A stretch of DNA of 64,000 nt, from NCBI GenBank assembly GCA_964187785.1, contig OZ076409.1, positions 28,274,001 through 28,338,000 of the forward strand, in the 5' to 3' direction. A program made the translations under genes and the position numbers. How positions within the stretch are numbered: position 1 is the stretch's first letter; each line of letters begins with the position of its first letter. Positions 3,701 through 25,698 of the stretch are shown piece by piece. The notes below the pieces were generated by a model, which was not told the DNA's origin, made no database searches, and worked only from the letters and a program-made list of their open reading frames with translations. The stretch is from Amphiscolops sp. MND2022. Taxonomy: Eukaryota.

Positions 3701-3713
3701 TCTAACTGCGCCA

Positions 3714-6803: not shown

Positions 6804-7517
6804 TGTAACGGCAACTGCCCATGTCAAAATTTTCGAAGCAAAAATTCGTTCAAGTCTGACGTGGCACTCAAACATGCTCCAGACGAAAGACCTGTCAAAA
6901 AAGCAGATCAGAAATCAGAAATCGCCCCCGCGAGAGACGACGAAAAGAGAAGACGTAGAAAACAGTCCCTAGAACACGGTGATGTGCCCATCTTTGGCGT
7001 TTGCACTACATAGGTAACAGAAACCGGTGTTCCAGATGCTCGCCTGAAGATCCTGCGGCGTCCTGTGCGGTGACGAGCGCTAGCGCTGGGAAGCCATGGT
7101 CAATTCGCTCCTGCTAAATAACTCAAACTTCTGATATTGTTATGCTTATTGTGCTTTTCTTGTTGTAGTAGATTGATATGCTCGAGAGCTGCCCATTTAC
7201 ATCTTTGGTTACCCCTTTTTGATGTCGATTTTATCAGATTCTCCAATACTATGGCTCAACATCCTCCTGTTTTCAGCCCCCTTTTTAAAGGCTAATTGAG
7301 CAGTGGTCTTGAGACGTGCAAGATGCCCGTTACTTTTAGCAGTTACAGACTAGGACCAGGCCAGAGAGTTTCCAACAAGACGGTTCCCCCACCTTGGGAC
7401 TGGCTCCTTCGGAGGGAAAATGAGCTAGGGCCGCGGAGATCTAAGTCCCGGATTACATTCGCTGTTCTAGTTCCTCCATTCTACGTTGCGGTTCAAGCGC
7501 CAGCGCTTATCGTTACA
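6804..7517 (+). repeat. 5' LTR (714 bp)
   Basis: TGTAACG...CGTTACA terminal inverted 7-mers. Identical to 24985-25698 except T7205/A25386 on by-eye comparison. Confidence 0.97.
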
Positions 7518-7532
7518 TAGAACCTCATTTTT

Positions 7533-7550
7533 TGGCGACCACAGAGGGAT
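7533..7550 (+). promoter_or_regulatory. Primer-binding site, probably tRNA-Arg(TCG)-type
   Basis: TGGCGACCACAGAGGGAT resembles the reverse complement of the 3' end of metazoan tRNA-Arg(TCG) (TGGCGACCACGAAGGGA). It lies 15 nt downstream of the LTR end. Confidence 0.7.
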
Positions 7551-8728
7551 CGTCTTGGGAAGCTTTCCCTAGCGGTTTTTAAAAGATCTGGCCCCCTGGT
7601 AATCAGCGCCAAGCCCGTTTTGACTCTGAAGAAGGAGAGAGAAGCAGAGTTTTGCCCTTTTTAGTCGTGTGACATTCTACTGGAACTGGGAGAGGCGTTG
7701 AACCAGAGAAAACCCGAAAAAATCACGTTTTCAGGTGTGAAAATGGTATTTTTAGGTGTTTTGGAAGGAAATCGATATTTTTGTGTGATGTGTTGTGTGC
7801 CCATCAGCGGGTATCTTTTTGCAGGTGCTGAAGACCGTAGCACGTGGCTACGGGTGTTTAACAGGTTTTGCAAGCTATTTTCAGCCATTTTATGCCATGC
7901 AAGAGGGTGACTGGTGGATGGCTGACCATGAACCAGCGAGGCGAAGGGGAAGTCAAATTGTGTGTTGCCTACTTCCTACTCCCATTTCTCGTGGAGACGT
8001 CCTAGAGGTATGGTTTTTGGTGGACAGCAAGTGCAATTGCAGACGATGCCAATGGTCCAAACCGCGTGTCTGTATCTGGTCTGGATGTGGAGAAAAAGCG
8101 TGGTGAAGGTGCACCCCCTGTGACCGGACGCGTCGCTCAAATGGCTCATGGTCGGTGAAATTTTTGAAAATGCACCTTTTTCGACGGGGAATCGTTGGTG
8201 CAGGTCAGTAATGTTTTATTGTAGATGTAACGACACCCTACGAAGTGCTTTTCTGTAAAAAAGATAGCACTTGCGTGAAAAAACCCTGATTTTGCGTTTT
8301 TTTCGTGTTTTTCGTGGTTTTGAGCACTTGTGCTCAGCGGAGCCAGGAAAACTTCGTGAAAAGTGTTGTAAAAAGCAACTGCAAGGCTCGAGAAAGCGAG
8401 CACGAGGCACAGAAGGCCGTAATTTTGCCTTTGGTTGTGATAAAAGTGCCGATCTAGCACCAGAAAATTGCAAAAAAGTGGAATTTTGACCAAAATGGCA
8501 CCCAGAAACACAGGCGTACACTGGTGTAGAAGTATGAAAAAGCAGTGTACGGTGTTTTGTCAAGCGTAGTAAACCCACAGGACACTAACTGTAACTTTTA
8601 CAGCGGATTCAGGCAGCCTGGGGCTGACACGGTGCAAAAAACCGGTAATTTTAGGTGTTTTTAAGCATAGAAAGTGCATTGTCTGAAAGTCTTAAGTGTG
8701 AAGCTTAGTGGACCAGAGCGAGTTTGAA

Positions 8729-9002
8729 CGCTCTTATTTTCCGTTCTAGCAATAAAAATAGCGCATTGTGGTGAAAACCGCGTGCAGAAATTCCTTTTCA
8801 ATGTTGAGAAAAGTTGAAAAACCTATAATTTTGGTTAGTTTCAGGAGTGTCCCAGCGCACAATTAAAACCCCCTGGGCACTCTGTCTTTTTGTTAGCTAG
8901 GAGCTTCCGCGCTCTCATTTTCTGTTTTTATAAAAAAAATAACGCATTGTGGTGAAAACCGCGTGCAAAAACTCCCATTCAGTGCTGAGAAAAGTGGAAA
9001 AA
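8729..9002 (+). repeat. Two ~93-bp imperfect direct repeats in the retroelement leader
   Basis: cgctct.atttt...aaaata.cgcattgtggtgaaaaccgcgtgca...tgagaaaagt.gaaaa at ~8729-8821 and ~8909-9002. Confidence 0.8.
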
Positions 9003-10223
9003 CGCACTGGATTTGATCAATTTTCCACAAAACCGGACTGTCTCTGAGCTAGGGTCGGGTCATCGATTCCTGAACCCTAGCCAAAAAGTGGTTGCATTTT
9101 CGTAACCACCACAAAAAGTAACGTTAGTGCCGAAATTTTGGTGGGCGTATCGTTCCCCAAAGTCGAGAAAAGCTCTCTGACGTTTTGACTCCAGAGAAGC
9201 TGAAAAAGCCGAAAAAATCCAAAACTGCAGGACTGTCAGTGCCTTATATCCAACGGGCACAACCAATTGAGGGTTTATCCCAGTGCTACGGATAGTGGGG
9301 CGACACGTTGGTCCCATTTTGCCCGCCGTATCACTTTCTGAGGTGATCCTCTTGGTCAATTTGTGAAAAAAGTCGTCAAAAACAGTGTTTTTTCGTGTAC
9401 AACGTACATAGTGGGTCGGAACTTCAAATAAGCGCTTGCGCTTCAATTCGACCATATCAGTGGCATTGTAGGTGCCCACTGGCATAAACTATTAAGTTTG
9501 GTGCCGATCTGTGCGATAATTGTCGAGAAAATAGGAAAAACGCGGCGCCCAAAAAGGTGTGCAAAAAGGCAGTTTTTTCTTAATTTTTCCAAGTAACCCG
9601 GGTACCTTAGCCGACGGGTGGGTCTATATTGCAGCCCACCATCGTAACCTGTGCTAGTTCCTACGTCGTTGCAGAGAATTTGAGCTTGCTAGCTTTTTTT
9701 CAGTAAACCGCAATCTTGAAAAAGACGTGAAAAACAGTGTATCCCGGTACATAGTGGTACCGCACGTCTGTACCTAGGTGAAACTGCGTAGAAGGGGTGC
9801 AGCTCAATTCTGTGTTTATTTTCGTAAACCTACACGTACCTAAGATCTGCTGGTCAATTTTGGGCTTGATACAGCGCCTCCAGCGCACACACGAGCCTCT
9901 TGAGTGTTGTAGTGCAAATTTTGGAAAATCCAAAAAATCTTTGAAATTCTTCCTGTGAGTGACCGGAGACGTTTTGCCCTGAACCAGGTTGATTTTCTGG
10001 CCCAGTGTGCTTGTGGAAAAGCGCTGTGCAAATTTGAACAGCCTACGAGCCTTAAAACGTATTTCGAGAAATTTGGGACGTTGCGAAACAGTCAAATTTC
10101 TTAAGTCCACACCGAGACGAGCCTAGAGCTAACAGCGACTCGACAAATCCCGCGTTCTTCGAGGCTTCTTTAAAGGTTACGTCCGAATCGTTGACACCTG
10201 CTCTGCCATTGGCATCGTGTGTA

Positions 10224-13200
10224 ATGGTCCTACCAGGCCTGGAAAAGCTTGACATGAGTTCGCAGTCATGGGTGACCATAGGATCCACAATGGACGGTTC
10301 GCGTTTTTCAGACGAAATGTCTGACGAAGTCACTATCGAGCAACAACGAAAGGAGGAACTGGCCGCCATGGTCCCTCCCTCTGAGGGTTCCGTTACATCT
10401 GGAAGCTCTCGTCGAACCGAACAATGGGTCGAAGAAACCTGTCGTGAAAGAGCCAATGAAGCAGAAGAAGAGTGGCCCAACTCAAACGTGACCAACGAAC
10501 TTGCAGCTGAGGAAGGGTGCTCTCGCGCACCCCTAGGGGAAAAAATGAGCTCTCGCCTACAGATCACGGTGGATGAGGATCTTACCTACTCGGAGAACAC
10601 GAGTGGTGCGAGGCCGCAAGGGTCTGGAGTCACTCGAAGTAACACTAGAGTTTGTGCTTATGGCAAACACAAGAAAGTGCGACCACCCATGATAAATGTA
10701 GGTGAACGTCAAGTTGAGGTGCCTCGTAAGAGGAGCGTGGCAGGTTCAGTGGCATCGTCCCAACGATCTTCGGTGTACAAAGCAGCAATATTGGAAGCCC
10801 AAGCCGAGACCCAACGTGCCTTAGCTGAACTGGCTAGCACTCGTGCTGGATGCAATGACCAACACCGTGCCATCGCAGAAAATATGAGAACATTGCAGAC
10901 AACGATGCGAGAAGGTTTGCAGGTCAGTGATCAGCTGCGAACCGCGCAGAACACGCAGAGCGCTCGCGTAGATGCACTAGGCTACAGAATGGGTGAGATG
11001 AATGACCTTTTGATGGCCCGTGAACTTCGTGTGGAAACCCAGATCAATGATTTGAGTAACCAAATGCACACTGTACTCAATGCTATCAACATCATGAGGC
11101 GCGAAAGGTCCCTCCCACGACAAGCTGGTGCCACTGAAGGTGTGCCGATCGCGGATTCAATTAAGGCCACGGAATCATCGCACCAGGGTCAGGCAACAAA
11201 ACCCGAGTTGGCGAGCGTATTGAAGCCCAGCACCTCCAAGTCGACAACGCCTGAAACCCGAACCAAGGATCCTGTGCCCATCATGGCTGCTGTGGAGCGT
11301 AAACCTGCACGGGTGCAGGTAAGAGGGCCCCACGACTCCTCGTCGATGAGCCAAATGACATCCTCCATAGTTCGAAGTGCCACCCGAGACCAAGGTGTGG
11401 ACCCGATGTCACCTATCTATCTAGATACTTCTACTGAAGTTGATTTATCCTGTACTAAGGCCACACTAGGGTCCCAGACTGATGGAGCTGCGTATGCGAC
11501 GGCCCCTACCATGGTTTCTGGAACGGACTCCCTGTATCTGACCGCCGACTGGACAGCTGAGGACGGGATGCCCTCGGGCGCTCCTTGCGCGAGTAGCACT
11601 CGCAGGAAAGAAGACGTGACGAACCTCTCAGTGCGAGCTACGCATGGCAGTGACGACGGTACTGATGATGTGGCACCCAAGGAAGGAGAGGCTGAAGTCA
11701 TCTCTCCTGAGCAATTGAGGTTCACTGCCGCCATTTCCAAAGCAATGTCCAAAGAACTGGCACCGTTACTGGCGGGACGTGACCTGGCTCAAACCAAACC
11801 CAGCGTGTATCGAGGCTCTAAGGACGGGTCTATTGATGGCTGGATCCTAGTAATGCAGCGATACTTAAAGAGAATCCAAACCAAAATCTCGGCCGAAGAT
11901 CGAGCCTGGAGCATTGTCGGTCACCTCGAAGGTGAGGCTCGCAACTACATCATCAACAAGGCAGAGTCTGAACGTGACACCCCCGAGAAGGTGTTCGAGT
12001 TGCTATCTAGTCGATTTGGCGCGGGAGGAAATCGCATGCAGGTGCGGCAGACCTTCCAAAGCCGCGTCCAACAAGAAAAAGAAGACTGGATGCAGTACTT
12101 AGACGCTTTAGAGGGTCTCAGGAGCCAAGGATTCCCGCAAGAAAGTATCACTACTAAACGCTATGAAATCTTGCAACGCTTCATGGAAGGTGTGCGAGAT
12201 CCAGTGTTGAGGCGTGAACTTGCTATAGTATACGCCTCGGAAACTTTTCTTACCGAACCCCCTACCGTGGAGTCCTTGCGATTTACCACGCGTCAGCTGC
12301 AACGCAATCGTCCCAGACCCACCCAACCTCAACAACCCTATGATCCCCGATTAGCCATGAGGTCTAGACCTCATCCTTTCGCACCACTGCCGCCGAACAA
12401 GATGGTTATGCCGCAGGGCGTCTTGCCACCTCCGGCGCCCCCCCAAAATGTCCCAGCTCCGGCTGTCCCAGCTCCCGTCCGAGCGCCAGTAGGTGCTTGT
12501 TTTCACTGTGGGCAAAACGGACATTTTGCTCGCGAGTGCCCCAATCGTGACCAAGCTCGAAAACCAATGACTGCCTCCGAACCAGAGGGCGTGAAGGTGA
12601 CCACGGAGGACACGATCGATGGTATCCTTGAAGGTCATCCAGGGATCTATCAATGCGCGAGCTGTGGCCTTTTCGATCAGGCGGAAGTGCAATGTGGTGA
12701 GCACTCCCATGCGCCAAAACCCAATGAAGAGTTGGCCTACAATCGATGGGCTGAGGTCGAATCAGCTGGCATCGCCGCGCACACCGTACCTTTGGAGGAT
12801 GACCGCGTGTTAATGCTACATCCAGCGGAACCGCCTGCGTTTCACACTCCGATGACATTCACTTGTGGTGCTAAGCAAGTTCAGACCTGCTTGGAACCCA
12901 CAACGTTCGATCCGCAAGGACGTACGCTAATTTCAATTCACCTGTTGCTGGCAGCTGAGCAAACGCGTAGGCCGACGCTAACTCTGGCGAAGCTATGGGT
13001 CGAGTTGTCTATCCTCTACAAACGAAACGAGTTGCCTCGACCGAAAGAATGGTACGCTCCGGGAGAGTCTGTGACTCTGACAACGTATTCCCCAGTGCCA
13101 GTCTGCGCTTCAATGGATGGAGTGGATATGAAATTCGAAGCCTGTGTGGTGGTGGATGTATTTTCCCCTGGCATTTGTCTGGGTCCCCAGGAGCTCAAAT

Positions 13201-16200
13201 GCTATAACATCAATCACCAGGAGCCCACCGGCGAAGCGCGTATTGATGAGCGTGCGTCGCTCGTAGTCTCTTTCGTGGTGCCTCATGCAGCACCTATTCC
13301 GCTGCGAGGGCTGGTGGACACTGGCTCGGGCGTCTCCATACTGACGTTTTCCGCCTTCAACAGAGTGGCAGCTCGAACTGGAACGGTACTTAAACCCTAC
13401 CAAGTTGACCTGTACGCAGCCAACGGGAAGACAATAAAGACCTACGGCCTCGCAGAACACATCCATTTCCAGCTGGGAGGATACGAACTTGAAACGAACT
13501 TTGTGGTGGTAGATGATGCAATGGGTGTGGAAGACTTCCTACTTGGCCGGAACTTTCTTCGCTCCTACCAGGTGTTAGTGGATCTAACATCTATGAAGAT
13601 TGTGGTGCGAGCACCAGTGAAGCCTGTGTGGCATCATGCTCACGCACAGGTAGGTGACACTTCAATAGCTACTCCAGTCGTTTTGGACAGTGACTTGGTC
13701 CTGCAACCTTTCGAACGAGCGGTGGCTAGAGCCAAGCTCGTCACCAACACACTAGAGCCGCTGATTTTTCAAAGCGTAGCGCTCAATGCCTCTTTGTCTG
13801 ACACTACGTTGCACAATGTCGTCTTTTTAGAGGACAGCGTGGCCACTGTCAGTGAGACAGGAACACTCTTTGTGAGCCTGATAAATCTCACCAGCAACCC
13901 TCAACGCATGCGGTGTGGTGTACAACTGGGCACCGTAGTACCCGTAACGGTAGTATACCAAGCAGTACCTCAATGTTTGGACTCTCCCACTACAACCCGC
14001 ACAAAAACTGACGCCGACGACAGTCGTGCAAATTTTGTTCATAAAATTTATAGTGAAGTGAATCTATCCACTGCTTCTGAGTTAACCTCTTCTTCCGAAT
14101 TTGAGTTTTTGTCCTCTACTGACCCTAGCGAGGCAGGACTATCGGAGCGCGAGATTCGCAAACGAACGGACCCAGAGCTAATGGCTCCGATTCCTGGGCC
14201 GGAATCTCAGCTCAAGGCGGTCAAGGATTTGTGGGGCGCTAGCGCCTGCGAGTCTCTCCGTAACCTCCTCGATGAATTTGATGAGCTGTTCATGAAACAC
14301 AAAGCAGACATCGGTCGGTGCACTATCTCTAAGCACACCGTGGAGGTGGAACCAGGGGCTGTACCGCATCGCGAAGGTGCTCGCCGGATGTCCCCTGAGA
14401 AGGCCGAACGTGCCAATCAGGAGGTACGGAACCTCTTAGCTCTGGGAATGATACAGCCCTCGCTGTCCCCCTGGGCGAGCGGCATTGTAATGGTGAAAAA
14501 GAAAAACGGGGAGTTGCGCTTTTGCTGCGACTTCCGCCCGTTAAATGAGGTAACCATTAAGGATGCTTATCCCTTGCCCCGCATTGATGAAAGCCTGGCA
14601 CGGCTAGGCAAAGCCAAGATCTATACCAGCATAGACCTTGCTTGGGCCTTTTGGCAAATTCCCGTGCGAAAAGCGGATCGCCACAAAACCGCTTTTGCTT
14701 GTGAACTAGGACTTTTTGAGTGGCGGCGAATGCCATTTGGTATGTGCAATGCATCTGCCACATTTCAGCGGTCAATAGCGCGTGCGCTAAGGAATATTGT
14801 CAATCGTGAGGGCAGCATGGTCATGGCCTACATTGATGATATCGTGATTGCCACGGAGACTGTGGAAGACCATATGGTACGCCTACGTGAAGTCTTTGAA
14901 TGTCTCCGTGAAGCCGGCTTCAAAATGCGCGTGGCCAAATGCGATTTCATGAAATCGGAGATCAAGTATTTGGGACGAGTGGTGTCCGCAGAAGGAGTGA
15001 AGCCCGACCCAAAAGCCGTCGTCAAGTTGCGCGATTGGGAAATTCCCCGTAACAAGACGGAGATGCAGAGTTTCCTTGGATTCGCCAACTATTATCGCGA
15101 ATTCATTCCTTGGCACGCTAAGCTGGTTGCACCCCTGCACGCCGTCACTGGACTAAATGCCACCTTCGCCTGGGGTCCTGAGCAACAAACCGCATTCAAT
15201 GAGATCAAAAAAGCCCTAATCGAGGCAACTGCGCTCGCGCAGCCTGATTCCGAAGGAGAGTTTGTGTTGGACACTGACGCTAGTGCTGTCGCCATTTCGG
15301 GTATTCTGCACCAGTGGCAAGGTCCTCCGGGTGAACGACGCCTGAGACCGATAGTTTACGGTAGCAAGAAGCTCACCACCACACAAGCCGAATACGGAGC
15401 CCGCAAACTTGAAATGTTCGCCGCCTACTATTTCATAGTGAAGAACCACAGCTATCTATGTCCCCGGAAATTCACCCTGCGGGTGGACAACCAAGCTTTG
15501 TCCTGGTTGAAAACCTACTCCACGGATCAAGCGCTAATCGGCCGATGGATTATGACCCTGGAGAAATATCACTTTCGCGTGGAACACCGCCCGAGGACCC
15601 AACATCGAAACGCCGATGGCTTGAGCAAACGAACCAACGAGTACCGATGCCGCGAAAAACAGCTTGCACAGCAGCCAGCTGCGGGCGAACGCTGGAACTT
15701 TCTTTCAGCTGACGAATTTGATAAACTACCTGTTGCCCCATGGTTCGACCTTCAGGGTCGAGTCATCCCGAACCATCCCGAGTTACCTGCGCACCTGCAG
15801 AACTTGGAGCCTAAGGCTCCCAACCAATTGATACGCGTGCTTCGCCGCACCAAACGAGCGAGCAGGAGGGACAGACAAGCAAAAGCATTCGCAGCCCCCT
15901 TGCCACCTCCGCCTTCCCTTGCTCTGCAACCGCACGAGGATGCATATCCAGACTACCCTGAGGACTGGATTGATGTGACTGATGAAGCACGCGAAGATTA
16001 TCTATTACCAACGCATGCCGTAAATGTACCCTCACGTACCGTCTATGCTATTGCTGGGGCGAATCCTGTTGCGTTGCAAGGTACTCCCTCGGGTGTGCGC
16101 GACTCAATCACGGCTCTTAAAGACATCAACACTGAACTTCACGAACATGCTCACACCGTGCATGGTATCAAAGATTTGATTCTAGCCCAAAACCGTGATG

Positions 16201-19200
16201 TTCATGTGCTAGCACTCAAAAAGTTGGTGCTGAACGAATCTATCGATCATGACGTGTTTCCCGAGAACGTGCGTGAATTCGCACGCAACTACTACCGCCA
16301 GAAGAAAACCCTCCTGTTTATCAACAAGAATGGTGTACTTTGCGTACAATACCCTCCCAACCAACGTCCCCTGCACGAACGTCCGTGCATGATCGTCATG
16401 CCACAACTGTACCAGCATGAGATTTTATTCCGCGCGCATGACGCCATGGGACATCAAGGTATCTCCAAAGTGGTGGCTAGGATTCAAGAACGTCACACAT
16501 GGCCTGGTATTCGGCGCAGCGTGGGCCGTTACGTTGGCCAATGCCTCACCTGTCAACAAGTTCGAGATAAGCCTGGTGACGTCCGATTCCACCTAAAGAA
16601 CATCCAAAGCGGATACTTCAACGAATTGGTCCAATATGATCATCTGAAGATCTGCCCCTCAGACAGTAATAACACTGGCATCTTGGTCATAATTGACCAT
16701 TTCTCCAAGTTCGCGGAAGCAGTGCCCTGTAGTCATCATGACTACGACGCTGTGACTACCTCTCGGTTGCTGTTACAAAAGTGGTTCGCCCGTCATGGCA
16801 CACCCACTAGGATGCAGTCTGACAATGCCCCTAATTTGACTGGCGAGGTGTCCAACGAATTCCTAAAAGCAGCCCACGTTACCAAAGTAACCTCTACGGC
16901 TAGCCATCCGAGAACCCAAGGCTTGGTCGAGCGCCAAAATCGGACGCTGCTAACCCTACTGCGAGTTTTTTGTTCCCGCCGTATGCGCGATTGGGACCAA
17001 TGTCTTGATGAAGTCATGGGTGCCTACAACTCTACGAGGCACGCCACCACTGGCTTCTCACCCTACATGCTGACCCGTGGCGTAGAGAAGGCCATCCCTC
17101 TCACGTTCTTATATCCCGAGTTTGCAGCCAAATCATTCGAGTCGCATGAGGCATATGTCGATCATGTATTGGCTCGCCAACAGGAAATACATGACCTGGT
17201 ACGGCGTAACACGCACCAAGCCCAATTGCGTCAAAAGTTGAAGTACGACCGTGCTATACAAGCGCGAGCTTACCAAGTAGGCGAGCTCGTCTGGGTTTTT
17301 TGCCGCTACGTACCGCAAAAGGGTTCCCCGAAATTGATGCGTGCTTGGCGAGGCCCGCACAAAGTTGTACAAGTCTTTCAGGACGGTCGTGTCTATGTAC
17401 TAGACACAGGTCAAAAGGTTCATTTTGAGCGTCTTAAACCGCACCACAGTGGCCCACTTGAACTTGCTACCGCACACTCGGACAGTGGTGAGGTGGTGGT
17501 CCTTATGGACCCCGAACCTGAACGTTCCGTCGATGTAGTTGATGACGACAAGTCTTTATCGTCGTATAAACCCGAACAACTACTTTCAGAGGCGTCCGAT
17601 GCATCTTTGCCCCCACGTCGACGTCACTGGATGGACACTCGACTACGCACGAAACTTCGCGCAGGTGGCTCCCGCCCGCATTATCAGCAATTTGACTATT
17701 CCACCTCGGGTACAGACGACGAACTATCCGATGCCATGTTGCCAATACCTCCTAATCCCGTTGACGAGGATATGGTGGAGCCTGCGGCTCCTCCGACTAC
17801 GTTGGATCAGTCGATATCCCCTGCCCGTGTACTACCCCAACTGTTCTCTGACCACGAGCGAGTGCGCTCACCGTCTCCACAGATATCCTCCGAAGAAGAG
17901 ACATCGCTACCAGGAACCTCAGCTTCCTTGTTGACGAATCCCTCGCTAACCAACTTTCTTAGTAACTATCCCATATGGCCGACCGCCCCTCCGATTCCCC
18001 TCAAATCTGCCAGCAGCGACAGCAACGTTCAACCCGATCCGCCTCATGCTCCCGAAACTTCGCCAGGAGCGGGGACCGCTCCTTATTTTAAAAGGGGGAG
18101 GGGGAGACCACCCAAGGCACAGAAGAAACGGCTGATCCGAGCGAAGGCAAGGACGAGGAAGAAAGAAACACCGAGAAATGCCGAAACTGAAACTGCGATC
18201 CAGGCCGAAACGGAAGCTCCCAGAACTGCAGAGACGCTAACAGAAGCATCTGCAACTGCTCTTAGGTATCAACTAAGGAGTAAACGACAGCCGCGCTACA
18301 AGTGTGGAACCTGCGGGCTGCGAGATTGTGTCTGCCTATTAGCTGTGAATGAGAACCGGAGGGTTCCCATTGGAGCCCGGGGAGTTCCTCCGGAAAAGAG
18401 AGAAAACTTGGTGTACCGCCTCACGGTGCGGGCCGAGAAAACCTACTCAGCTGTAGAGCGGTCCGGAGACCACCCTGTGGACACTATCTTGGAGAAGTTG
18501 TCACTGCCTGGGGTAGCGAAGGCCCCTTGTCCTAGGTTTAAGGAGTGGACTAGCGATGGAAAGGGCCTGGAGTTTACCCTGCCCACGGTGTTGCCCCCCG
18601 TGCCTAGTAATATTGCGTTTGGACCATTCAATTTTGAAAGAGAACCTGTGCAGATGGTCCGATGCATCACTGCCGACTTGTTATGCGACAAGTATGGAGT
18701 CCAGGTGGAACCAGGAGGGGTATACAGCCCGGCTCCTCACTGGTGGTTGCTGGTAACAGCTCCACGAGTGGAGGCGCTGGTGGAACCGTTGAATCTGTTA
18801 TCCTGTCTAGAGAGTCTGAGGACCCTCACCACAGTGGACTTAATACTTTGCTTCCATATCATAGACTGGTACCGAGGTAAGATGAAGTTCGCGTGGTGGC
18901 TGGAACTAATAATCACATGTTTCGCCACCTATCCCAGAATTCGACTATTAGATGAGTGGACTCACACCTTCGAGATCCCCTTGTTCCCCAAAGCCGCCCT
19001 GGGAACTTTAGATGCGTGGGTAAAGGCCGGCAGCGACAATCGAGCGATGCCCCGCTCAGTGTGGCAAGACCTGGCTGCAGTCCAAGGGCGTACGCATCGC
19101 GTGTGTCTGCCCCCAGATAATGACCCCGGACGAGAGATTGTTTACCCGGGAGCCCTGTATCCGAATTCAGCCGAACACGTCTCTTACGATGAATCCGATT

Positions 19201-19637
19201 TCTTGCAGGCCGAGGGCGACATAGTGTTAGCATGCCCTGCTGACCTAAAGACCAACTCTGCCGCCCTGCGATATGTGCTGCGGGAGTGCGGCATGGAAGA
19301 TGTATTTGCCTTACGACCTAAGGTGGGCGAGATTCTCACTATCCCGCCTGATGTGAACCCCAACCCTAACCAAAGTATTCACCTGTTGATAGTCCGTGCT
19401 AACCAGCGCGCACCGCTGCTGACAGATGACTACTTGCGTTGCATGACGTACTTGATACAGCGCCTGATAGATAAAGGATCCACACGGGTCCACCTACCCA
19501 TTCTGGATCCCGAGAGACCGGCTTTCTCGTTGGTCAATCTGTACCATACTCTAACGAACATGTTCGAGGGTACTGGTATTCACGTGGTTTTGCATAGCCG
19601 CGTATATGTATCAATATTAACTATAGGGCTGAAGTAG
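10224..19637 (+). CDS. Gag-Pol polyprotein (~3140 aa): long N-terminal extension, capsid, CCHC knuckle, aspartic protease, dUTPase-like fold, RT, RNase H, integrase, extended C-terminal tail with AT-hook and two macrodomain-like units
   Basis: Single open frame (track ORF 10191-19637; first ATG 10224). CFHCGQNGHFAREC (12498-12539), LVDTGS (D 13317), YPLPRID...LAWAFWQ...MPFG...YIDD (14829), TDAS (15276), HDAMGH...CLTC, IDHFSK/SDNA/VERQN integrase core, WRGPHKV GPY/F-like motif. Confidence 0.95.
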   Translation: MVLPGLEKLDMSSQSWVTIGSTMDGSRFSDEMSDEVTIEQQRKEELAAMVPPSEGSVTSGSSRRTEQWVEETCRERANEAEEEWPNSNVTNELAAEEGCSRAPLGEKMSSRLQITVDEDLTYSENTSGARPQGSGVTRSNTRVCAYGKHKKVRPPMINVGERQVEVPRKRSVAGSVASSQRSSVYKAAILEAQAETQRALAELASTRAGCNDQHRAIAENMRTLQTTMREGLQVSDQLRTAQNTQSARVDALGYRMGEMNDLLMARELRVETQINDLSNQMHTVLNAINIMRRERSLPRQAGATEGVPIADSIKATESSHQGQATKPELASVLKPSTSKSTTPETRTKDPVPIMAAVERKPARVQVRGPHDSSSMSQMTSSIVRSATRDQGVDPMSPIYLDTSTEVDLSCTKATLGSQTDGAAYATAPTMVSGTDSLYLTADWTAEDGMPSGAPCASSTRRKEDVTNLSVRATHGSDDGTDDVAPKEGEAEVISPEQLRFTAAISKAMSKELAPLLAGRDLAQTKPSVYRGSKDGSIDGWILVMQRYLKRIQTKISAEDRAWSIVGHLEGEARNYIINKAESERDTPEKVFELLSSRFGAGGNRMQVRQTFQSRVQQEKEDWMQYLDALEGLRSQGFPQESITTKRYEILQRFMEGVRDPVLRRELAIVYASETFLTEPPTVESLRFTTRQLQRNRPRPTQPQQPYDPRLAMRSRPHPFAPLPPNKMVMPQGVLPPPAPPQNVPAPAVPAPVRAPVGACFHCGQNGHFARECPNRDQARKPMTASEPEGVKVTTEDTIDGILEGHPGIYQCASCGLFDQAEVQCGEHSHAPKPNEELAYNRWAEVESAGIAAHTVPLEDDRVLMLHPAEPPAFHTPMTFTCGAKQVQTCLEPTTFDPQGRTLISIHLLLAAEQTRRPTLTLAKLWVELSILYKRNELPRPKEWYAPGESVTLTTYSPVPVCASMDGVDMKFEACVVVDVFSPGICLGPQELKCYNINHQEPTGEARIDERASLVVSFVVPHAAPIPLRGLVDTGSGVSILTFSAFNRVAARTGTVLKPYQVDLYAANGKTIKTYGLAEHIHFQLGGYELETNFVVVDDAMGVEDFLLGRNFLRSYQVLVDLTSMKIVVRAPVKPVWHHAHAQVGDTSIATPVVLDSDLVLQPFERAVARAKLVTNTLEPLIFQSVALNASLSDTTLHNVVFLEDSVATVSETGTLFVSLINLTSNPQRMRCGVQLGTVVPVTVVYQAVPQCLDSPTTTRTKTDADDSRANFVHKIYSEVNLSTASELTSSSEFEFLSSTDPSEAGLSEREIRKRTDPELMAPIPGPESQLKAVKDLWGASACESLRNLLDEFDELFMKHKADIGRCTISKHTVEVEPGAVPHREGARRMSPEKAERANQEVRNLLALGMIQPSLSPWASGIVMVKKKNGELRFCCDFRPLNEVTIKDAYPLPRIDESLARLGKAKIYTSIDLAWAFWQIPVRKADRHKTAFACELGLFEWRRMPFGMCNASATFQRSIARALRNIVNREGSMVMAYIDDIVIATETVEDHMVRLREVFECLREAGFKMRVAKCDFMKSEIKYLGRVVSAEGVKPDPKAVVKLRDWEIPRNKTEMQSFLGFANYYREFIPWHAKLVAPLHAVTGLNATFAWGPEQQTAFNEIKKALIEATALAQPDSEGEFVLDTDASAVAISGILHQWQGPPGERRLRPIVYGSKKLTTTQAEYGARKLEMFAAYYFIVKNHSYLCPRKFTLRVDNQALSWLKTYSTDQALIGRWIMTLEKYHFRVEHRPRTQHRNADGLSKRTNEYRCREKQLAQQPAAGERWNFLSADEFDKLPVAPWFDLQGRVIPNHPELPAHLQNLEPKAPNQLIRVLRRTKRASRRDRQAKAFAAPLPPPPSLALQPHEDAYPDYPEDWIDVTDEAREDYLLPTHAVNVPSRTVYAIAGANPVALQGTPSGVRDSITALKDINTELHEHAHTVHGIKDLILAQNRDVHVLALKKLVLNESIDHDVFPENVREFARNYYRQKKTLLFINKNGVLCVQYPPNQRPLHERPCMIVMPQLYQHEILFRAHDAMGHQGISKVVARIQERHTWPGIRRSVGRYVGQCLTCQQVRDKPGDVRFHLKNIQSGYFNELVQYDHLKICPSDSNNTGILVIIDHFSKFAEAVPCSHHDYDAVTTSRLLLQKWFARHGTPTRMQSDNAPNLTGEVSNEFLKAAHVTKVTSTASHPRTQGLVERQNRTLLTLLRVFCSRRMRDWDQCLDEVMGAYNSTRHATTGFSPYMLTRGVEKAIPLTFLYPEFAAKSFESHEAYVDHVLARQQEIHDLVRRNTHQAQLRQKLKYDRAIQARAYQVGELVWVFCRYVPQKGSPKLMRAWRGPHKVVQVFQDGRVYVLDTGQKVHFERLKPHHSGPLELATAHSDSGEVVVLMDPEPERSVDVVDDDKSLSSYKPEQLLSEASDASLPPRRRHWMDTRLRTKLRAGGSRPHYQQFDYSTSGTDDELSDAMLPIPPNPVDEDMVEPAAPPTTLDQSISPARVLPQLFSDHERVRSPSPQISSEEETSLPGTSASLLTNPSLTNFLSNYPIWPTAPPIPLKSASSDSNVQPDPPHAPETSPGAGTAPYFKRGRGRPPKAQKKRLIRAKARTRKKETPRNAETETAIQAETEAPRTAETLTEASATALRYQLRSKRQPRYKCGTCGLRDCVCLLAVNENRRVPIGARGVPPEKRENLVYRLTVRAEKTYSAVERSGDHPVDTILEKLSLPGVAKAPCPRFKEWTSDGKGLEFTLPTVLPPVPSNIAFGPFNFEREPVQMVRCITADLLCDKYGVQVEPGGVYSPAPHWWLLVTAPRVEALVEPLNLLSCLESLRTLTTVDLILCFHIIDWYRGKMKFAWWLELIITCFATYPRIRLLDEWTHTFEIPLFPKAALGTLDAWVKAGSDNRAMPRSVWQDLAAVQGRTHRVCLPPDNDPGREIVYPGALYPNSAEHVSYDESDFLQAEGDIVLACPADLKTNSAALRYVLRECGMEDVFALRPKVGEILTIPPDVNPNPNQSIHLLIVRANQRAPLLTDDYLRCMTYLIQRLIDKGSTRVHLPILDPERPAFSLVNLYHTLTNMFEGTGIHVVLHSRVYVSILTIGLK

Positions 19638-19932
19638 CCTTTTCATTTTAGTTGTCCCCATTTTTCCTTTGCCCTCAGTTCTTGCAACAGTTTCTGTAAC
19701 AACCTTGGAAGAGCCTTGAAATGCTCTCGAGATGTTAATTTGTCATGTTGTTCACTCAAGGGTTTTGTTCTAGTTCGTTAGTTAGTTAGAGTTAGATTTT
19801 AAGTTTGTAGTGGCCCCCTTACGGAGCCGATGTTGCCTGGCTGCAATTGAAGGACGAACCGACTCACGGCTCGTTCCAGAGAGAACTTGTCCCCATAAGT
19901 CTAACAGTGGTCCTTTTTAGACCTATGCATTA

Positions 19933-22900
19933 ATGGCCCATTGCCCAAACAATTCAGCGCCTGCAACAGGGTCTAATAGTGCAAGGCCCCAGGAATCTGC
20001 GCGAGCGCAGAGGGTCAATCAGGCCCAATATGTCGAAGCAAAGCTGCGGGACGGTCTTTCGCCAGTAGCCGTAGCTGGGGTGGCCGCCCTACTGACTCAG
20101 CTTGAATCGATGCAAATGCTGCCGAATGCATCTTTGTCAATCACCACGGAGGTGGCAAGCTATCGTCGCACCTTGACGTGCACCAACAATGCCTGGGATG
20201 GGCACGACCTGACTCACCAGTTCTTGGACGAAAGATCAATCGCAGTGCATGGCCCCAGCCAGGGCACCAGATTCGAACAAGAAACATCACTGCGTATGAT
20301 GCCCGTTAACGTCCCATCGCTGCCTTCCATTGCGGCACCAAATCCAGTGCAGACGACGCCGCATTCTAGCTCGATTGCTTATGGGGCACCATATGGAACC
20401 CGGGCAACGACGACGCAGAACATTACCAATCAACCAGCCTCAAGTCGGGAGCCCTCGGGGTCCCAACCGCCAGCAGTGCCTAATCTAAATCTGATCGGAC
20501 GGAGTGCCAGCGAGCAAGCGGTGATTGTGGCCCTGCAGGCTGTCGCCAACTACCCCAACTCCTCTGACTTCGTTCGTGCAGTTGAGCAAAGGATTCCCGG
20601 ATTGGCACATTACTTGCAAGCCGCAGCTCAGCCCTCGGGCTGCGTCACCCCACCCACCACCCTAGCCGAAGCTGTGTCTATGGAAGCAGAAACTACGGCT
20701 GGACCAAGCACCAGCGCCATGACCTATCCCCGTGAGGAAACTGGCCGGAAGCGACTTACTGAGGAAAACATCGTCGCTACACGCCATGATTCCGTGACCG
20801 ACAGTCCGACCAGTCGTCCCCCTCCGGACAAGCGAGCAGATGTACCCCACCAGTCGCAGATGAAAAGTGTGGTGGTCGTGAGGCCTCCATATCGCGTCGG
20901 CCACCTAGGCGTAGGCGCGCCTCAGATGTCCCTGGAAGAGGCCATTAACCGCTACGGCAGTGTGGATGCGAATCCTGGAACGAGTCCTGTGCCCTCGGGC
21001 ACAGGCTGTGCCAACATGTCCCTGGAGGTGCCCGAGACAATAGATGAGACCAGTCCTCCCGCCTTTCTTCCCCCGTCCGATGATGTATCCGGCACCGTGG
21101 TGACTGGCGATAGCAAACGCATCTGGATGGCGGCAGAGTGTTTGTACCCGAACACATGTGCGGTTAGAAGTAGAGCACCGCCGTCTGACGCCGAGCAGAG
21201 AGAAGTGAGCAGAATCACCATTGCGGCTCAGATAACTCGGTCGCTACGTGCCCGTGATGCGGACTTGAGTGAGCAAGCCTGGGAACAGCGTGCTCGAGAG
21301 CAACTGCCCGCGACACCCAACAACTATATGGCTCGCCTGCAGCATGACCTCACCGAGCAATTTCCCGCTAGGTACATGTTGCACGAAGGAGAAACCTGGG
21401 AAGCAAACGCCCGCTACGCTCGCAATATCAAGTCAATGAAGCCCCTCTTGAAAGCAGCTCTGCAGCGTGCGCGCTATTGTGTGGCAGTAGATTCGACACT
21501 CAAGAGTGATCTCCCCATCGACAACCTTCTGCCCGATGTGCTGGTATTAACAATGCCACTCTCCCGCTTCGCTGAGGTCGCGGAGATGGTCGCGGTCATG
21601 TACGACCCTAACCTGAGAGGGTCCCTAAGAGAGCCGCCCCCGCGACGTGTAGTCTTCACCAATCTGATCGACCACATGGCTTGTGAAGGACTGCTACGCA
21701 ACCTGGATGCCCTCATGGCAGATACCCGTAGACCTGGGAGTGTGGCGTCCTTAGTAAACGTGGTTGCAGACGCAATGGAGCGTGCAGCAGGGATCCTTCG
21801 GGGTCGTCTGGGAGCGCTCGCGCTCTTCGCATCCCCGCCGGGATTCATGTATTGGCAACGAAGCTTGCAGCAATTTGTGTACATCCTGTCTGAGGTATGC
21901 AAAGCGCGCCGAATCGAGTTTGCTATTTGCGCGCCAAATCTGCGGGTTGATCGAGGAGACCTACGCCCCGATGCATTGTCATACCCCGCCTTCTTTGCTG
22001 CCGTGTCGAGAGTGCTGATCGCTGTGGAACGATCAGGAAATGCACAACTGACTATCGACGACGCCATACTGTTCGATCATGGAATGTGTATGGGGCGAAT
22101 GGCCTTCGACTTGGACGGGAATCGCGTCATGCGGGCATCCAACATGAGTGAACGAGAGGCCGTCCGACGATACAACTGGTTGGTGCGGAAGGACAAAGAA
22201 ATTCCCGTACGAGCAGAGCTGGCAGAGCTAGTGAAGGAAATTGAAACCTGGCCTGCCACACGCACGGTCGAAAGGACCATTCCCCAAATTCGGTTTGCCG
22301 CGGGAATAGAACCCGTCAAGTTGCCCGTGGGCATGAGGTACGTCGTGGCTATAGAGGCGACCAACTTGAAGGCTGAAGTAGATGCCGCCGGAATAACGTA
22401 TGCCGAGTGGTATCAGTCCAGATTCGTGGACAGGACCCTGGCCGAGGTAGCTCAAGAGCTTAACTGTCCCTTGGAAGCCTTTTGTACCAGTCTCGGACTA
22501 GGCTGGAACATCGACGTAATAGCCTCTGAGTACTTGCTCACCAATGTGCAGACCGACAAATTGTTGGAAACCATCGGCGAAGCTACTGTAGGAGAGATGT
22601 TAGCGCTCGCGCTAGCCATGGGCCCGACGAAGTTTGTGGCAGGTCCCCTTGCTATGCTAGTCGAGTTGGTAGTGTCCAGTGATCTAGTCACCTTTTACAG
22701 CTACCTGATCCTCGCGCAGGGACAACTACGCAGCCTAACTCGATGGGGCCACCTCCTAAATTCCAAGGACCAGCAAGATTATGTCACCCAGCTGGAACGC
22801 ATGCGTGCGTCCCTCCAACATTGGTTGTACTCCACCCTAGTGTTCGCCTCTGGCTTGTTCGTAGGCGTGGATCAATCGCAACCCCTCCACCATTCCGAGC

Positions 22901-24213
22901 GTCAACTCCCTGCGGAAACGGCGGGATTCCCCATGCCTCAGCAAATCGCCGATTTGACTCTGGCCGAAGTGGAAGACTTCGTGGCCGTTATGGCTTCCGT
23001 CCTGGCTCCAATCTTCGGTGCGGTCGGTGTGTGCCGGTATCCCACCAAACCACTGGCGAGAGCAGTACAGGTGCATATGGTCTCCTTCTGCACCTATCTC
23101 CAAGGACGCCCCCCACTGACCTATCAGCGAATCGTGCAGGCTGTATTGAGTGGCGAGATGCCGCACGGGTACACCACCTTGAAGTCGGAGAAACAACTAG
23201 AAGAGAATTTGATGGGTCTGTTGCGTGCCCGCACACGAAAAGCGTGCCCTTTGCCACGAGAATACGGCCCAGTCAACTGGTACTCCGCACCCCTCAGCCT
23301 GAATGGAGTCCCCTTTAGATTCCCTTGGTCGCAGGAGTTCATTCGCAAGGTGATCCGTGCCAGCACTAGTGCTGGTCCACCAGTAGATCCCCTGTACGCC
23401 TTCAAATGCATCACCTTCCCAAATCACTATTGGAAGGAGCCACTGGGATGGCCTAGAGCAAAACCCGTTGGTCGCGCCCCTGAAGCCTTCAATCGACAAA
23501 TCCAGTATATGGAATTGGCTCAAATCCCAAACTGGATTGAAGGAGCAGCTCAGACTCGCCAGAGGAACCTGCAGAGCCGCGTGACTCCGTTCCCAAGAAA
23601 AGCTGCCTGGCGACCGCAGGCCAAGATGACAATGTCAGGGGATATGTCCATCGTCCAACACGATGAGATTAATTCTGTGCTAGGCTCCGAAGCCCGCGCA
23701 GAGTGGGAAGGACATTGTTTGGAGCTGGAAATTGCCAGCTTCCCCAAATGGAAGCGAGCTTGCGAGCTCTGGAGTCAGCCTGGCTGGGTCTCCAAACGGA
23801 TATCCTTGGCCGTGGAGAGTAGAGCTGAACTCGAGAGACAACAGGCGTTCGCGCCTACCATGCTGGCACCCACAATGGCCATGTCACTAAGTCAGCCCAT
23901 CGACCGGCCCGTGACTCTGGATTTGCCCACTCATATTCTGCAGGCAGAGCCTGTGAGTCCACCATCGACACAGGCCAGTCCTCAGTCATCGCAACCCCAG
24001 ACCGGAGAACACGACGCTGAACTGACCCCCAGCACTATCCTGGTGCAGCCAATCGCCGATTTAACGCTCCCAGAGGACCTGTCAGACTCGGAAACAGTAG
24101 TTACTGTGGTTCCTGCTCAACGTAGAGCGTCAATTGCGTCGGAAGATGCCAGCAATCCAGGAACTCCCGATGATGCCATAAAGAATCGAGCTCGACGCAG
24201 CTCAGCCCAATAA
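19933..24213 (+). CDS. Accessory ORF2 (1426 aa) of the giant LTR element; unknown function, central SGNH/GDSL-hydrolase-like domain
   Basis: Uninterrupted 4.28-kb ORF between pol and the 3' LTR with the same elevated GC as pol. P/S/T-rich termini; YCVAVDS...VVFTNLIDH...ASPPG...DLRPD pattern at ~21475-22030. Confidence 0.85.
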   Translation: MAHCPNNSAPATGSNSARPQESARAQRVNQAQYVEAKLRDGLSPVAVAGVAALLTQLESMQMLPNASLSITTEVASYRRTLTCTNNAWDGHDLTHQFLDERSIAVHGPSQGTRFEQETSLRMMPVNVPSLPSIAAPNPVQTTPHSSSIAYGAPYGTRATTTQNITNQPASSREPSGSQPPAVPNLNLIGRSASEQAVIVALQAVANYPNSSDFVRAVEQRIPGLAHYLQAAAQPSGCVTPPTTLAEAVSMEAETTAGPSTSAMTYPREETGRKRLTEENIVATRHDSVTDSPTSRPPPDKRADVPHQSQMKSVVVVRPPYRVGHLGVGAPQMSLEEAINRYGSVDANPGTSPVPSGTGCANMSLEVPETIDETSPPAFLPPSDDVSGTVVTGDSKRIWMAAECLYPNTCAVRSRAPPSDAEQREVSRITIAAQITRSLRARDADLSEQAWEQRAREQLPATPNNYMARLQHDLTEQFPARYMLHEGETWEANARYARNIKSMKPLLKAALQRARYCVAVDSTLKSDLPIDNLLPDVLVLTMPLSRFAEVAEMVAVMYDPNLRGSLREPPPRRVVFTNLIDHMACEGLLRNLDALMADTRRPGSVASLVNVVADAMERAAGILRGRLGALALFASPPGFMYWQRSLQQFVYILSEVCKARRIEFAICAPNLRVDRGDLRPDALSYPAFFAAVSRVLIAVERSGNAQLTIDDAILFDHGMCMGRMAFDLDGNRVMRASNMSEREAVRRYNWLVRKDKEIPVRAELAELVKEIETWPATRTVERTIPQIRFAAGIEPVKLPVGMRYVVAIEATNLKAEVDAAGITYAEWYQSRFVDRTLAEVAQELNCPLEAFCTSLGLGWNIDVIASEYLLTNVQTDKLLETIGEATVGEMLALALAMGPTKFVAGPLAMLVELVVSSDLVTFYSYLILAQGQLRSLTRWGHLLNSKDQQDYVTQLERMRASLQHWLYSTLVFASGLFVGVDQSQPLHHSERQLPAETAGFPMPQQIADLTLAEVEDFVAVMASVLAPIFGAVGVCRYPTKPLARAVQVHMVSFCTYLQGRPPLTYQRIVQAVLSGEMPHGYTTLKSEKQLEENLMGLLRARTRKACPLPREYGPVNWYSAPLSLNGVPFRFPWSQEFIRKVIRASTSAGPPVDPLYAFKCITFPNHYWKEPLGWPRAKPVGRAPEAFNRQIQYMELAQIPNWIEGAAQTRQRNLQSRVTPFPRKAAWRPQAKMTMSGDMSIVQHDEINSVLGSEARAEWEGHCLELEIASFPKWKRACELWSQPGWVSKRISLAVESRAELERQQAFAPTMLAPTMAMSLSQPIDRPVTLDLPTHILQAEPVSPPSTQASPQSSQPQTGEHDAELTPSTILVQPIADLTLPEDLSDSETVVTVVPAQRRASIASEDASNPGTPDDAIKNRARRSSAQ

Positions 24214-24967
24214 ACCCTGCCGCCAATGGGAGCGTTCGCGCTCCCTATAGACTCTAAACTCTACCGAAACTGTGCCTTCAAACTTATCGCTTTAGCCGGT
24301 GCTACCCTTACATGGTGCAAATTTTTGTTCATAGTTATTACTTAGTTATTGTACTGTTAGTAATGCGCTGGGTGTACGGTCAATAGAGTGCACCTGCCCC
24401 AGCTGCTTCGCCTACAAAGTAAAAAAGAATCTATTACCGAAGAAAAACTGTTATTTCTGTTGCGCACCGTTCGCGGTGTTTTTGAGTTGCCATGGTCTAG
24501 AAAAAGTCTTAGCCTTTTAGTTACGATTTTTGCCGTTTTTCCTTGTGTTTTGGTGCTCAAGCATTTTCTATCGACTGTCTAAGGAGTAGCCGAAGCGGCG
24601 CCCTCCCAAAAGAAGTTTTATGTTATCCGAAATTGATCGAAGACTGTAAATGTCAAGTTGCATAAAAAAGAAAATTTTAGCTGACCTTGGTCGCAAAAGA
24701 AATTTTAGCGAAAACTGCTTGCCCAAACGAGTTTTAACCGACTGAAAACCTTAGCTCTCGAGCTGGTGCTAAAACCTCGTTTGCACTTTTTGTAAAAATA
24801 CTAGGCAGTAAAGTTTTCTTTGAAAAAAACCGCGAAATTTGTCAAAAATAGTTGCTGAAAAACAAGGACTCGTCCTTGTCCCCTGTGGTGTGGATGATGA
24901 TCCCCAGCAGTCTCTGCGATGCCGTTTCCAGACGAGGCCAGATGCCGCTTGCCAGGGACGACAAGCC

Positions 24968-24984
24968 AGAAGCCCGGGGAGTGA
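24968..24984 (+). promoter_or_regulatory. Polypurine tract
   Basis: AGAAGCCCGGGGAGTGA immediately 5' of the 3' LTR start. Confidence 0.7.
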
Positions 24985-25698
24985 TGTAACGGCAACTGCC
25001 CATGTCAAAATTTTCGAAGCAAAAATTCGTTCAAGTCTGACGTGGCACTCAAACATGCTCCAGACGAAAGACCTGTCAAAAAAGCAGATCAGAAATCAGA
25101 AATCGCCCCCGCGAGAGACGACGAAAAGAGAAGACGTAGAAAACAGTCCCTAGAACACGGTGATGTGCCCATCTTTGGCGTTTGCACTACATAGGTAACA
25201 GAAACCGGTGTTCCAGATGCTCGCCTGAAGATCCTGCGGCGTCCTGTGCGGTGACGAGCGCTAGCGCTGGGAAGCCATGGTCAATTCGCTCCTGCTAAAT
25301 AACTCAAACTTCTGATATTGTTATGCTTATTGTGCTTTTCTTGTTGTAGTAGATTGATATGCTCGAGAGCTGCCCATTTACATCTATGGTTACCCCTTTT
25401 TGATGTCGATTTTATCAGATTCTCCAATACTATGGCTCAACATCCTCCTGTTTTCAGCCCCCTTTTTAAAGGCTAATTGAGCAGTGGTCTTGAGACGTGC
25501 AAGATGCCCGTTACTTTTAGCAGTTACAGACTAGGACCAGGCCAGAGAGTTTCCAACAAGACGGTTCCCCCACCTTGGGACTGGCTCCTTCGGAGGGAAA
25601 ATGAGCTAGGGCCGCGGAGATCTAAGTCCCGGATTACATTCGCTGTTCTAGTTCCTCCATTCTACGTTGCGGTTCAAGCGCCAGCGCTTATCGTTACA
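24985..25698 (+). repeat. 3' LTR (714 bp)
   Basis: Direct copy of 6804-7517. Confidence 0.97.

Follow-up and report, generated by a model that had tools for sequence, protein, structure and literature searches.

A multi-family lineage of 19-kb Ty3/gypsy-like LTR retrotransposons with 3-bp target-site duplications and a primer site set 15-16 nt from the LTR

An 18.9-kb giant long terminal repeat (LTR) retrotransposon occupies positions 6804..25698 (+) of a 64,000-nucleotide stretch of the Amphiscolops sp. MND2022 genome (GCA_964187785.1, contig OZ076409.1, positions 28,274,001 to 28,338,000 of the forward strand). This whole stretch is called the window below, and coordinates are window positions unless stated otherwise. 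With an internal region of ~17.5 kb, the element raises the question of whether it is a chance assemblage of unrelated parts or one member of a lineage that copies itself and, if the latter, by what route it enters the genome. The answer we favor, with moderate confidence, is an autonomous, recently mobile Ty3/gypsy-like element from a multi-family 19-kb lineage that uses a non-standard integration reaction.

An earlier sequence-only reading of the window had described paired 714-bp LTRs with one mismatch, a primer-binding site (PBS) and a polypurine tract (PPT), a 2.7-kb leader, a stop-free Gag-Pol of ~3140 aa, and a stop-free second open reading frame (ORF) of 1426 aa. Our measurements agree with this layout. 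Once aligned, the two LTRs (714 bp each, TG...CA) differ at LTR position 402 only, and both the PBS (7533-7550) and the PPT (24976-24981) were located. The leader measures 2706-2736 nt, ORF1 runs uninterrupted for 3137 aa from its first Met, and ORF2 agrees in both length and openness. Three features had been overlooked: a 3-bp target-site duplication (TSD), an interval of 15 nt that separates the LTR from the PBS, and a site resembling a splice acceptor ahead of ORF2. The layout of the element is as follows.

6801..6803 (+): 5' copy of the TSD (TTT), 3 bp
6804..7517 (+): 5' LTR, 714 bp, TG...CA
7518..7532 (+): LTR-to-PBS spacer, 15 nt, read as a putative U5-end extension of the linear cDNA
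7533..7550 (+): PBS for host tRNA-Arg(TCG), complementary to the tRNA 3' end
7551..10223 (+): non-coding leader, 2.7 kb, with a 181-bp-spaced repeat at 8720-9003
10056..19637 (+): ORF1, a fused single-frame Gag-Pol, 3193 codons stop to stop; first Met at 10224, 3137 aa
19901..19920 (+): putative splice acceptor (branch-point-like CTAAC, pyrimidine run, AG), 12 nt 5' of the ORF2 ATG
19933..24213 (+): ORF2, 1426 aa from Met, in the envelope (env) position; open frame 19921-24213, 1430 codons
24976..24984 (+): PPT GGGGAG (24976-24981) and the 3 nt to the LTR, a gap of 2-4 nt across families
24985..25698 (+): 3' LTR, 714 bp
25699..25701 (+): 3' copy of the TSD (TTT); flanking sequence unique in the genome

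The 1.07-Gb host genome (G000) contains 415 exact junctions of 5' LTR, spacer, and PBS, with family A, that of the window copy, and family A' combined. All 142 ORF2 matches scored from 3226 candidates are 97-100% identical, and the frame is open for at least 1420 aa in ~93 of them, counted by eye. Among the 40 LTR matches listed, 18 pairs lie ~18 kb apart. Twenty family-A copies diverge from the window copy by 0.2-4.4%. Six of the 20 LTR pairs compared are identical, and on average the two LTRs differ by 0.18%, an estimate of age that is biased young because the choice favored, for most pairs, the closest LTR matches. The same layout recurs in four sister families (B-E) of ~19.1-19.2 kb each, with LTRs of 710-746 bp across the lineage and TG...CA termini in all five families. 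Identity between A and its sister families is 88% or 66-73% for reverse transcriptase (RT) and RNase H (RH), 53% or 40% for the ORF1 tail, and 45% or 28-30% for the ORF2 core. The element lineage has been mobile recently and may be active at present.

These counts also bear on whether ORF2 and the tail are mere passengers, or the locus a one-off chimera or assembly artifact. Such an origin would be in keeping with the breaks found in at least one frame of most copies. With hundreds of copies, five families in the same order, and accessory dN/dS (ratio of nonsynonymous to synonymous substitution rates) far below 1, it is refuted, and we assign it a negligible probability. The earlier reading had itself named a chimeric ORF2 or tail as its possible undoing, an outcome excluded by the 415 junctions and the shared 19-kb layout of families B-E. 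Its description of a young, multicopy, stable large-cargo lineage is borne out by near-identical LTR pairs, an architecture common to families A-E, and cargo under purifying selection.

TSD length is set by the geometry of the intasome, and here it departs from that of an ordinary element in the same genome. An exact 3-bp TSD flanks 30 of 35 scored copies of the lineage (28 of 33 scored by script from 36 pairs, plus the window copy and one A' copy; two pairs were unscored), where the chance of an exact 3-bp TSD is 0.018 per site. Empty-site paralogues were available for four insertions, and three of the four have 3 bases in common. The flank of the window copy has no paralogue in the genome, and its own empty site is hence unseen. 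In a control gypsy family, 5-bp TSDs were found in eight of nine scored pairs (one of ten was unscored), and the PBS offset is 0. A copy of this control family lies within the window at 240-4130 (-) (also L112). It is an ordinary gypsy element with ~215-bp LTRs, a PBS offset of 0, and broken frames; it has no TSD and is flanked by a 202-bp direct duplication, 99.5% identical.

The second departure concerns the primer site. The PBS is offset from the LTR by 15 nt in family A and 16 nt in families B-E, and it pairs with the 3' end of host tRNA-Arg(TCG), for which there are 256 pattern matches; three of these loci were scanned, and all three contain tRNA-Arg genes. Among the first 100 matches in the list, 99 fall in a tandem tRNA-Arg array at G000:C9:57.54-57.58 Mb (L060, L061; ~174-bp spacing), the source of the element's primer. 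The PBS of families C and E (L062, L079) is unlike that of A, B, and D, which suggests from sequence that the primer tRNA was switched within the lineage. With a PBS 15-16 nt past the LTR, standard reverse transcription would place the spacer on the U5 end of the cDNA. Normal copies terminate exactly at CA in all families, and therefore 15-16 nt must be removed. We found no precedent for a 15-16-nt PBS gap in the literature searched. Pairing of the spacer with U5 into an RNA hairpin is a weak possibility (z -0.1 to -2.2).

Apparent fossils of the unprocessed end are present in the genome. Among 13 pattern matches in families C-E, five loci, representing four events, are 3' LTRs with an upstream PPT and the full spacer. 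These four aberrant junctions (families C/D) break 0-2 nt into the PBS. All four adjoin element DNA rather than host DNA, as expected for end-joining of unprocessed cDNA, and in one, located at a contig edge, two U5 ends of different sequence meet head to head. At G000:C7:28.93-28.96 Mb (L090-L092, L113-L115), tandem 9.5-kb units join a 3' LTR with spacer to mid-pol and an inverted copy is adjacent; this array looks like an amplified circle of unprocessed cDNA.

In the replication cycle we propose, genomic RNA would be translated into one fused Gag-Pol, of which the single frame is observed, and tRNA-Arg(TCG) would prime reverse transcription 15-16 nt beyond the LTR, where the complementarity is observed. 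By the standard mechanism, the linear cDNA would extend beyond the terminal CA by 15-16 nt at U5 and by 2-4 nt at U3, in line with the four fossil junctions. The DDE integrase would then cut after CA, freeing the long tail, and insert the ends into target DNA at a stagger of 3 nt, of which the 3-bp TSD is the observed trace. An unusual intasome is likely. Usual end trimming by integrases removes a dinucleotide, and the short-trim model of integration would be strained by a processed end of 15-16 nt.

It is also possible, though we consider it unlikely, that a host nuclease removes the 15-16-nt U5 tail, or that the plus strand is never completed, with the integrase performing ordinary short processing and only the 3-bp stagger being new. 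The integrase core has conventional DDE spacing, and most of it can be aligned with Ty3 integrase; the fossil junctions show the extension, not its remover. A sequence-blind exonuclease, however, would not guarantee the CA ends seen in normal copies of all families, and the head-to-head junction implies that both strands extend to the PBS boundary. Cleavage after CA by the element's own integrase is the reading we retain as the more likely.

Several observations weigh against the proposed cycle as a whole and should be set beside it. Five of the 35 scored copies lack a clean 3-bp duplication (one 5-bp TSD, two with one mismatch, one without a TSD, and one spacer-retaining copy). In the empty-site test, one paralogue shares 4 bases and one secondary match gives -3. 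A search for spacer-retaining 3' LTRs in family A gave none, as its four matches at three loci proved to be 5' LTRs with a mutated PBS, and the remaining matches in families C-E are likewise seven 5' LTRs with a mutated PBS and one ambiguous case. Any single aberrant junction could possibly be recombination or assembly error, because these are element-to-element joins and one is at a contig edge. Finally, ORF1 and ORF2 are both open end to end in just 2 of 22 family-A copies examined.

The coding content of ORF1 places the element close to Ty3/gypsy. Its domains are listed here.

11829..12539 (+): Gag capsid-like region and CX2CX4HX4C zinc knuckle; weak PNMA match, E 0.004
12828..13241 (+): candidate pseudo-protease, a protease-like repeat without the catalytic Asp, weakly matched; in 5/5 families
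13299..13562 (+): aspartic protease by Pfam and motif, DTG intact
13653..14060 (+): conserved domain between protease (PR) and RT, where other elements have a dUTPase-like domain; no dUTPase match
14493..15569 (+): RT (YIDD) and RNase H with no tether domain between them; closest solved relative Ty3, E 4e-70
16401..17435 (+): integrase (IN) by motif and alignment: HHCC, D-60-D-35-E, GPH where Ty3 has GPF
18090..18335 (+): AT-hook-like GRP motif and CX2CX4CXC cysteine cluster, both in 5/5 families
18591..18995 (+): first macro-like domain, moderately supported
19161..19607 (+): TARG1/DarG-type macrodomain (predicted fold), catalytic Asp and glycine loops replaced

By Pfam, the knuckle, protease, RT, RNase H, and integrase follow one another as in gypsy elements (PR-RT-RH-IN), and each of the catalytic motifs DTG, YIDD, and D-60-D-35-E is preserved. 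Against solved structures, the best match of the RT-RH region is Ty3 (E 4e-70), followed by a caulimovirus-type enzyme (7e-46), a ranking of matches rather than a tree. The integrase is also closest to Ty3 among solved structures, with GPH aligned to the Ty3 GPF. The pseudo-protease of the earlier reading is only weakly suggested, by an hhalign E of 0.001 over 39 columns (control E 0.48). The domain between PR and RT gave no dUTPase match with a shallow 4-sequence profile. A further conserved stretch of 220 aa fills the interval between RNase H and integrase (15690-16355, ORF1 residues 1880-2100), with a dN/dS of 0.05 and no family match.

Beyond the integrase, the AT-hook noted earlier was found as an AT-hook-like GRP motif in all five families, and the two proposed macrodomains fared unequally. 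The structure model of the tail (mean pLDDT, the predicted local distance difference test, 83) supports the C-terminal one by its match to TARG1 (Z 16.4, Foldseek E 1e-8). The upstream one is moderately supported by an hhalign match to the C-terminal one (E 3e-4), and in the model the two have the same topology. While the fold of the C-terminal domain is like that of TARG1/OARD1 and DarG (Z 16.4, TM ~0.8 to TARG1), its glycine-rich loops are replaced, unlike theirs, by NSAAL and DPERP (50-66 rows). The TARG1 catalytic residues, which we take to be Lys and Asp, are represented in the element by Arg and by Pro or Ser, respectively. The sequence-profile match to TARG1 is weak (E 0.16), a 5-row tail profile gave no match against the PDB, and Atlas gave only leads below 0.9 for the tail, among them Macro at 0.81. 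Going by these replacements, this enzyme-like accessory domain is probably inactive. Chromoviruses carry a chromodomain after the integrase, in the same place as the macro tail of this element. Most likely, the AT-hook, Cys cluster, and two dead macrodomains would serve as binding modules, either tethering the integration complex or shielding it.

All of this cargo is under constraint. Overall, the accessory regions show purifying selection (dN/dS ~0.05-0.3), far below 1 in each one measured, the check that the earlier reading had called for. In the two unsaturated family pairs, many deeper pairs being saturated for dN/dS, values are 0.055-0.059 for the SGNH domain of ORF2, 0.06-0.13 for its helical domain, and 0.045-0.09 for the macro domains. 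The integrase is at 0.027 (C-E pair), and linkers and termini reach 0.1-0.3. Within family A, pN/pS (the corresponding polymorphism ratio) is 0.11 in ORF2 and 0.13 in the tail for shared variants, and 0.33 and 0.25, respectively, for singletons.

ORF2 consists of a small conserved N-terminal domain, a long low-complexity linker, an SGNH domain, and helical domains. A structure model of 936 aa (mean pLDDT 57) has two confident parts.

21466..22050 (+): SGNH-fold domain that retains the block-I Ser and block-III Asn but has Arg in place of the block-V His
22300..22860 (+): all-helical domain, confidently predicted from the model

The SGNH-like character claimed for this ORF is supported at the level of fold. 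The best structural match has Z 8.5 (root-mean-square deviation 3.8, 177 aligned residues), and the top rows are nearly all SGNH/GDSL proteins. Blocks were assigned from motif and secondary structure rather than atomic superposition. Definitions of the SGNH blocks and of OSK are given in PMC3905857 and PMC10792757. The block-I Ser (Ser525) is conserved in 12/12 rows and the block-III Asn (Asn581) in 13/13. The block-V His position is Arg in 13 of 15 rows, leaving the DxxH acid-base pair absent, and the block-II Gly is found in only 1 of 13. Pfam has no family for ORF2, and Atlas gave no usable match for the SGNH region. The sole return of a PDB profile search with ORF2, designer PPR repeats, was rejected as spurious.

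Nor does ORF2 resemble an envelope. There is no Pfam env match and no C-terminal hydrophobic segment; the sole RXXR-type site is at residue 1423, with no internal furin-type site. Ahead of ORF2, a pyrimidine-YAG is present in 5/5 families, and the protein would be translated from a spliced or trans-spliced subgenomic RNA. In family A only, a two-codon upstream frame (19925-19935) ends in a stop codon sharing bases with the ORF2 start (TAATG), an arrangement that could act as a stop-restart signal. We suggest that ORF2 would act as a non-envelope scaffold in which a dead SGNH domain binds RNA or anionic lipid and localizes particles, by analogy with Oskar OSK and the esterase surface of ZfL2-1.

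This role is open to challenge on several counts. The best Z of 8.5 scarcely exceeds the usual background of the tool (7-8), Foldseek with the 936-aa model gave no match at E 0.001 in the PDB and viral libraries, and the leader yielded no strong splice donor. In addition, because Ser525 (12/12) and His585 (11/13 rows) are kept, the domain may not be dead. ORF2 could then be an active hydrolase or acyltransferase with a rewired Ser525-His585 site that remodels membranes and replaces the envelope for cell-to-cell spread, a proposal partly compatible with the rest of the favored mechanism. Asp584, along with Ser525 and Asn581, is invariant, ORF2 contains two hydrophobic stretches, and its env position and acceptor-like site would suit such a function. 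Active SGNH ORFs are known in other retroelements, by the available accounts (PMC3905857, PMC5408684). The lost block-V acid and His and the scarcity of the block-II Gly argue against it, however, as do the missing internal furin-type site and Pfam envelope match. We give this alternative a low probability and keep the scaffold as our working model.

Relatives of ORF2 were found on short contigs (P0118, P0258, P0139, P0273, P0138; 26-31% identity). The best match of P0118 in G000 is 28-30%, and because it has no close match there, the lineage probably exists in another species. P0138 carries a Bacteroidota MAG (metagenome-assembled genome) protein label and is probably contamination. P0213 (680 aa, six cluster members) fuses ORF2 residues 722-1022 to ORF1 residues 2698-3090, the reverse of the element order, and is a rearranged derivative. 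The metagenome and viral contigs scanned contained no relative of the element. Elsewhere, a frame of 526 aa that matches ubiquitin hydrolase (UCH) lies directly 3' of a family-E copy (L078:2676-4253). The rest of the window holds one or more host exons encoding C1 and MRCK-type PH domains (48777-49409), a sign that the host is an animal. It also holds an inverted repeat like a miniature inverted-repeat transposable element (5946-6346), dispersed repeats of 515-528 bp at 31.2-33.0 kb, and non-coding repeats of several further families within 26000-33100 and 34000-53400.

Among known systems, Burro/GYPSM1 of planarians is the nearest in scale. By the available description, it too is a giant gypsy-like metazoan element with a very long polyprotein, accessory domains, and an extra domain between PR and RT (PMC6431247). 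Burro, however, is longer than 30 kb, and most of its cargo (BIR, BCL2, MATH, ankyrin, and env-like) is found between Gag and PR, whereas the present element has 0.7-kb LTRs, macro domains after IN, and an SGNH ORF2. No Burro-type cargo (apoptosis/ubiquitin or env-like) matched Pfam at E 0.1. Since the same source sets the threshold for "giant" at >20 kb internal, the exceptional size claimed for our 17.5-kb internal region was overstated.

The SGNH domain has parallels of its own. Vesta1 of bdelloid rotifers likewise has an SGNH/GDSL protein (GDSL ORF3) in the env position, and its ORF3s are described as typically spliced with intact catalytic residues (PMC5408684, as available). In our element, by comparison, the block-V His is Arg and the SGNH domain sits inside a 1426-aa multidomain protein. 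Oskar OSK and ZfL2-1 ORF1p, as far as the available text covers them, reuse the SGNH fold for RNA binding (OSK, which has no triad) or anionic-lipid binding (PMC10792757, PMC3905857). OSK matches the ORF2 domain structurally at Z 7.2; we found no homology to either at the sequence level, and ORF2 keeps the Ser that OSK lacks. Macro-domain ORFs, for their part, are reported from fish endogenous retroviruses (PMC4977317, available text). Each type of cargo thus has a precedent, while the combination, which the earlier reading did not recognize from described families, was not found in the literature available to us. Strongly conserved pseudo-enzymes of this kind point to unrecognized host-element interactions.

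With Ty3/gypsy elements, typified by yeast Ty3, the lineage shares PR-RT-RH-IN order, TG...CA termini, a CX2CX4HX4C knuckle, a motif at the GPY/F position, and tRNA priming. It differs in its 18.9-kb length, a single 3137-aa polyprotein with a macro tail, the 1426-aa ORF2, and a PBS 15-16 nt from the LTR, compared with 0 in the control family and 4 in a cestode element from a source whose available text describes the PBS as immediately downstream of the LTR (PMC4558846). It differs also in having a 3-bp rather than a 4-6-bp TSD, the latter being customary in the group but no part of how it is formally defined. Because of the 3-bp TSD, we file the lineage as a gypsy-like variant and not as a typical Ty3/gypsy member. 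In a set of 13,566 plant elements, TSDs are given as 4, 5, or 6 bp, with a finder that required standard features (PMC6317226, available part). The LTRharvest defaults listed in Table 1 of PMC2253517, the part available, include a maximum LTR distance of 15,000 and a minimum TSD of 4; such elements are excluded because their distance is >15,000 and their TSD is 3. If default de novo finders miss the lineage on both counts, it may be common but hidden.

Troyka is the closest comparison for the 3-bp TSD. In the available text of Kojima 2025 (PMC12440569), its TSD is 3 bp against 4-6 bp in other LTR elements, and this length, held to be unique to Troyka, is used in proposing a new superfamily. 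From the partial descriptions available, the Kuafuorterviruses (the lineage of PMC11673190) are probably Troyka. Our element resembles Troyka, so described, in TSD, single Gag-Pol, domain order, lack of an envelope, and animal host. It could have arisen within Troyka/Kuafuorterviruses as a derived branch, with its 3-bp stagger inherited, as Troyka's 3-bp TSDs in aquatic animals might suggest (PMC12440569), or it may already be cataloged in Repbase, Dfam, or GyDB. The comparison with Troyka was made by description. Either is improbable in our judgment. By that description, Troyka has CG...CG termini rather than TG...CA, LTRs of 100-400 bp against 714 bp, an internal region of 1.6-7.7 kb against 17.5 kb, a CX2CX8-10HX4C finger rather than CX2CX4HX4C, and no GPF/Y where our element has a motif at that position. 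On termini, finger, GPF/Y, and size, we reject membership. Prior cataloging also finds little support in the literature: our search, which left out Repbase, Dfam, GyDB, Repbase Reports, and most subscription papers, gave no description of the lineage, and the relatives of ORF2 and tail are unnamed save for one hypothetical protein.

What we have not found in print is the cargo combination, the dead sites under strong selection, and above all a 3-bp TSD together with TG...CA termini and a 15-16-nt trimmed end. More tentatively, and with real doubt, we propose that these LTR retrotransposons form an undescribed clade with hosts in more than one animal species. Its gypsy-type intasome would have acquired the 3-nt stagger separately from Troyka and would cut off the 15-16-nt end on its own, with dead tandem macrodomains as its guide and an Oskar-like pseudo-hydrolase scaffold for its delivery. 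A second 3-bp lineage, with TG...CA termini and a Ty3-like integrase, makes the 3-bp TSD a weaker classifier than it has been for Troyka and renders the determinants of the stagger testable by comparing the two integrases.

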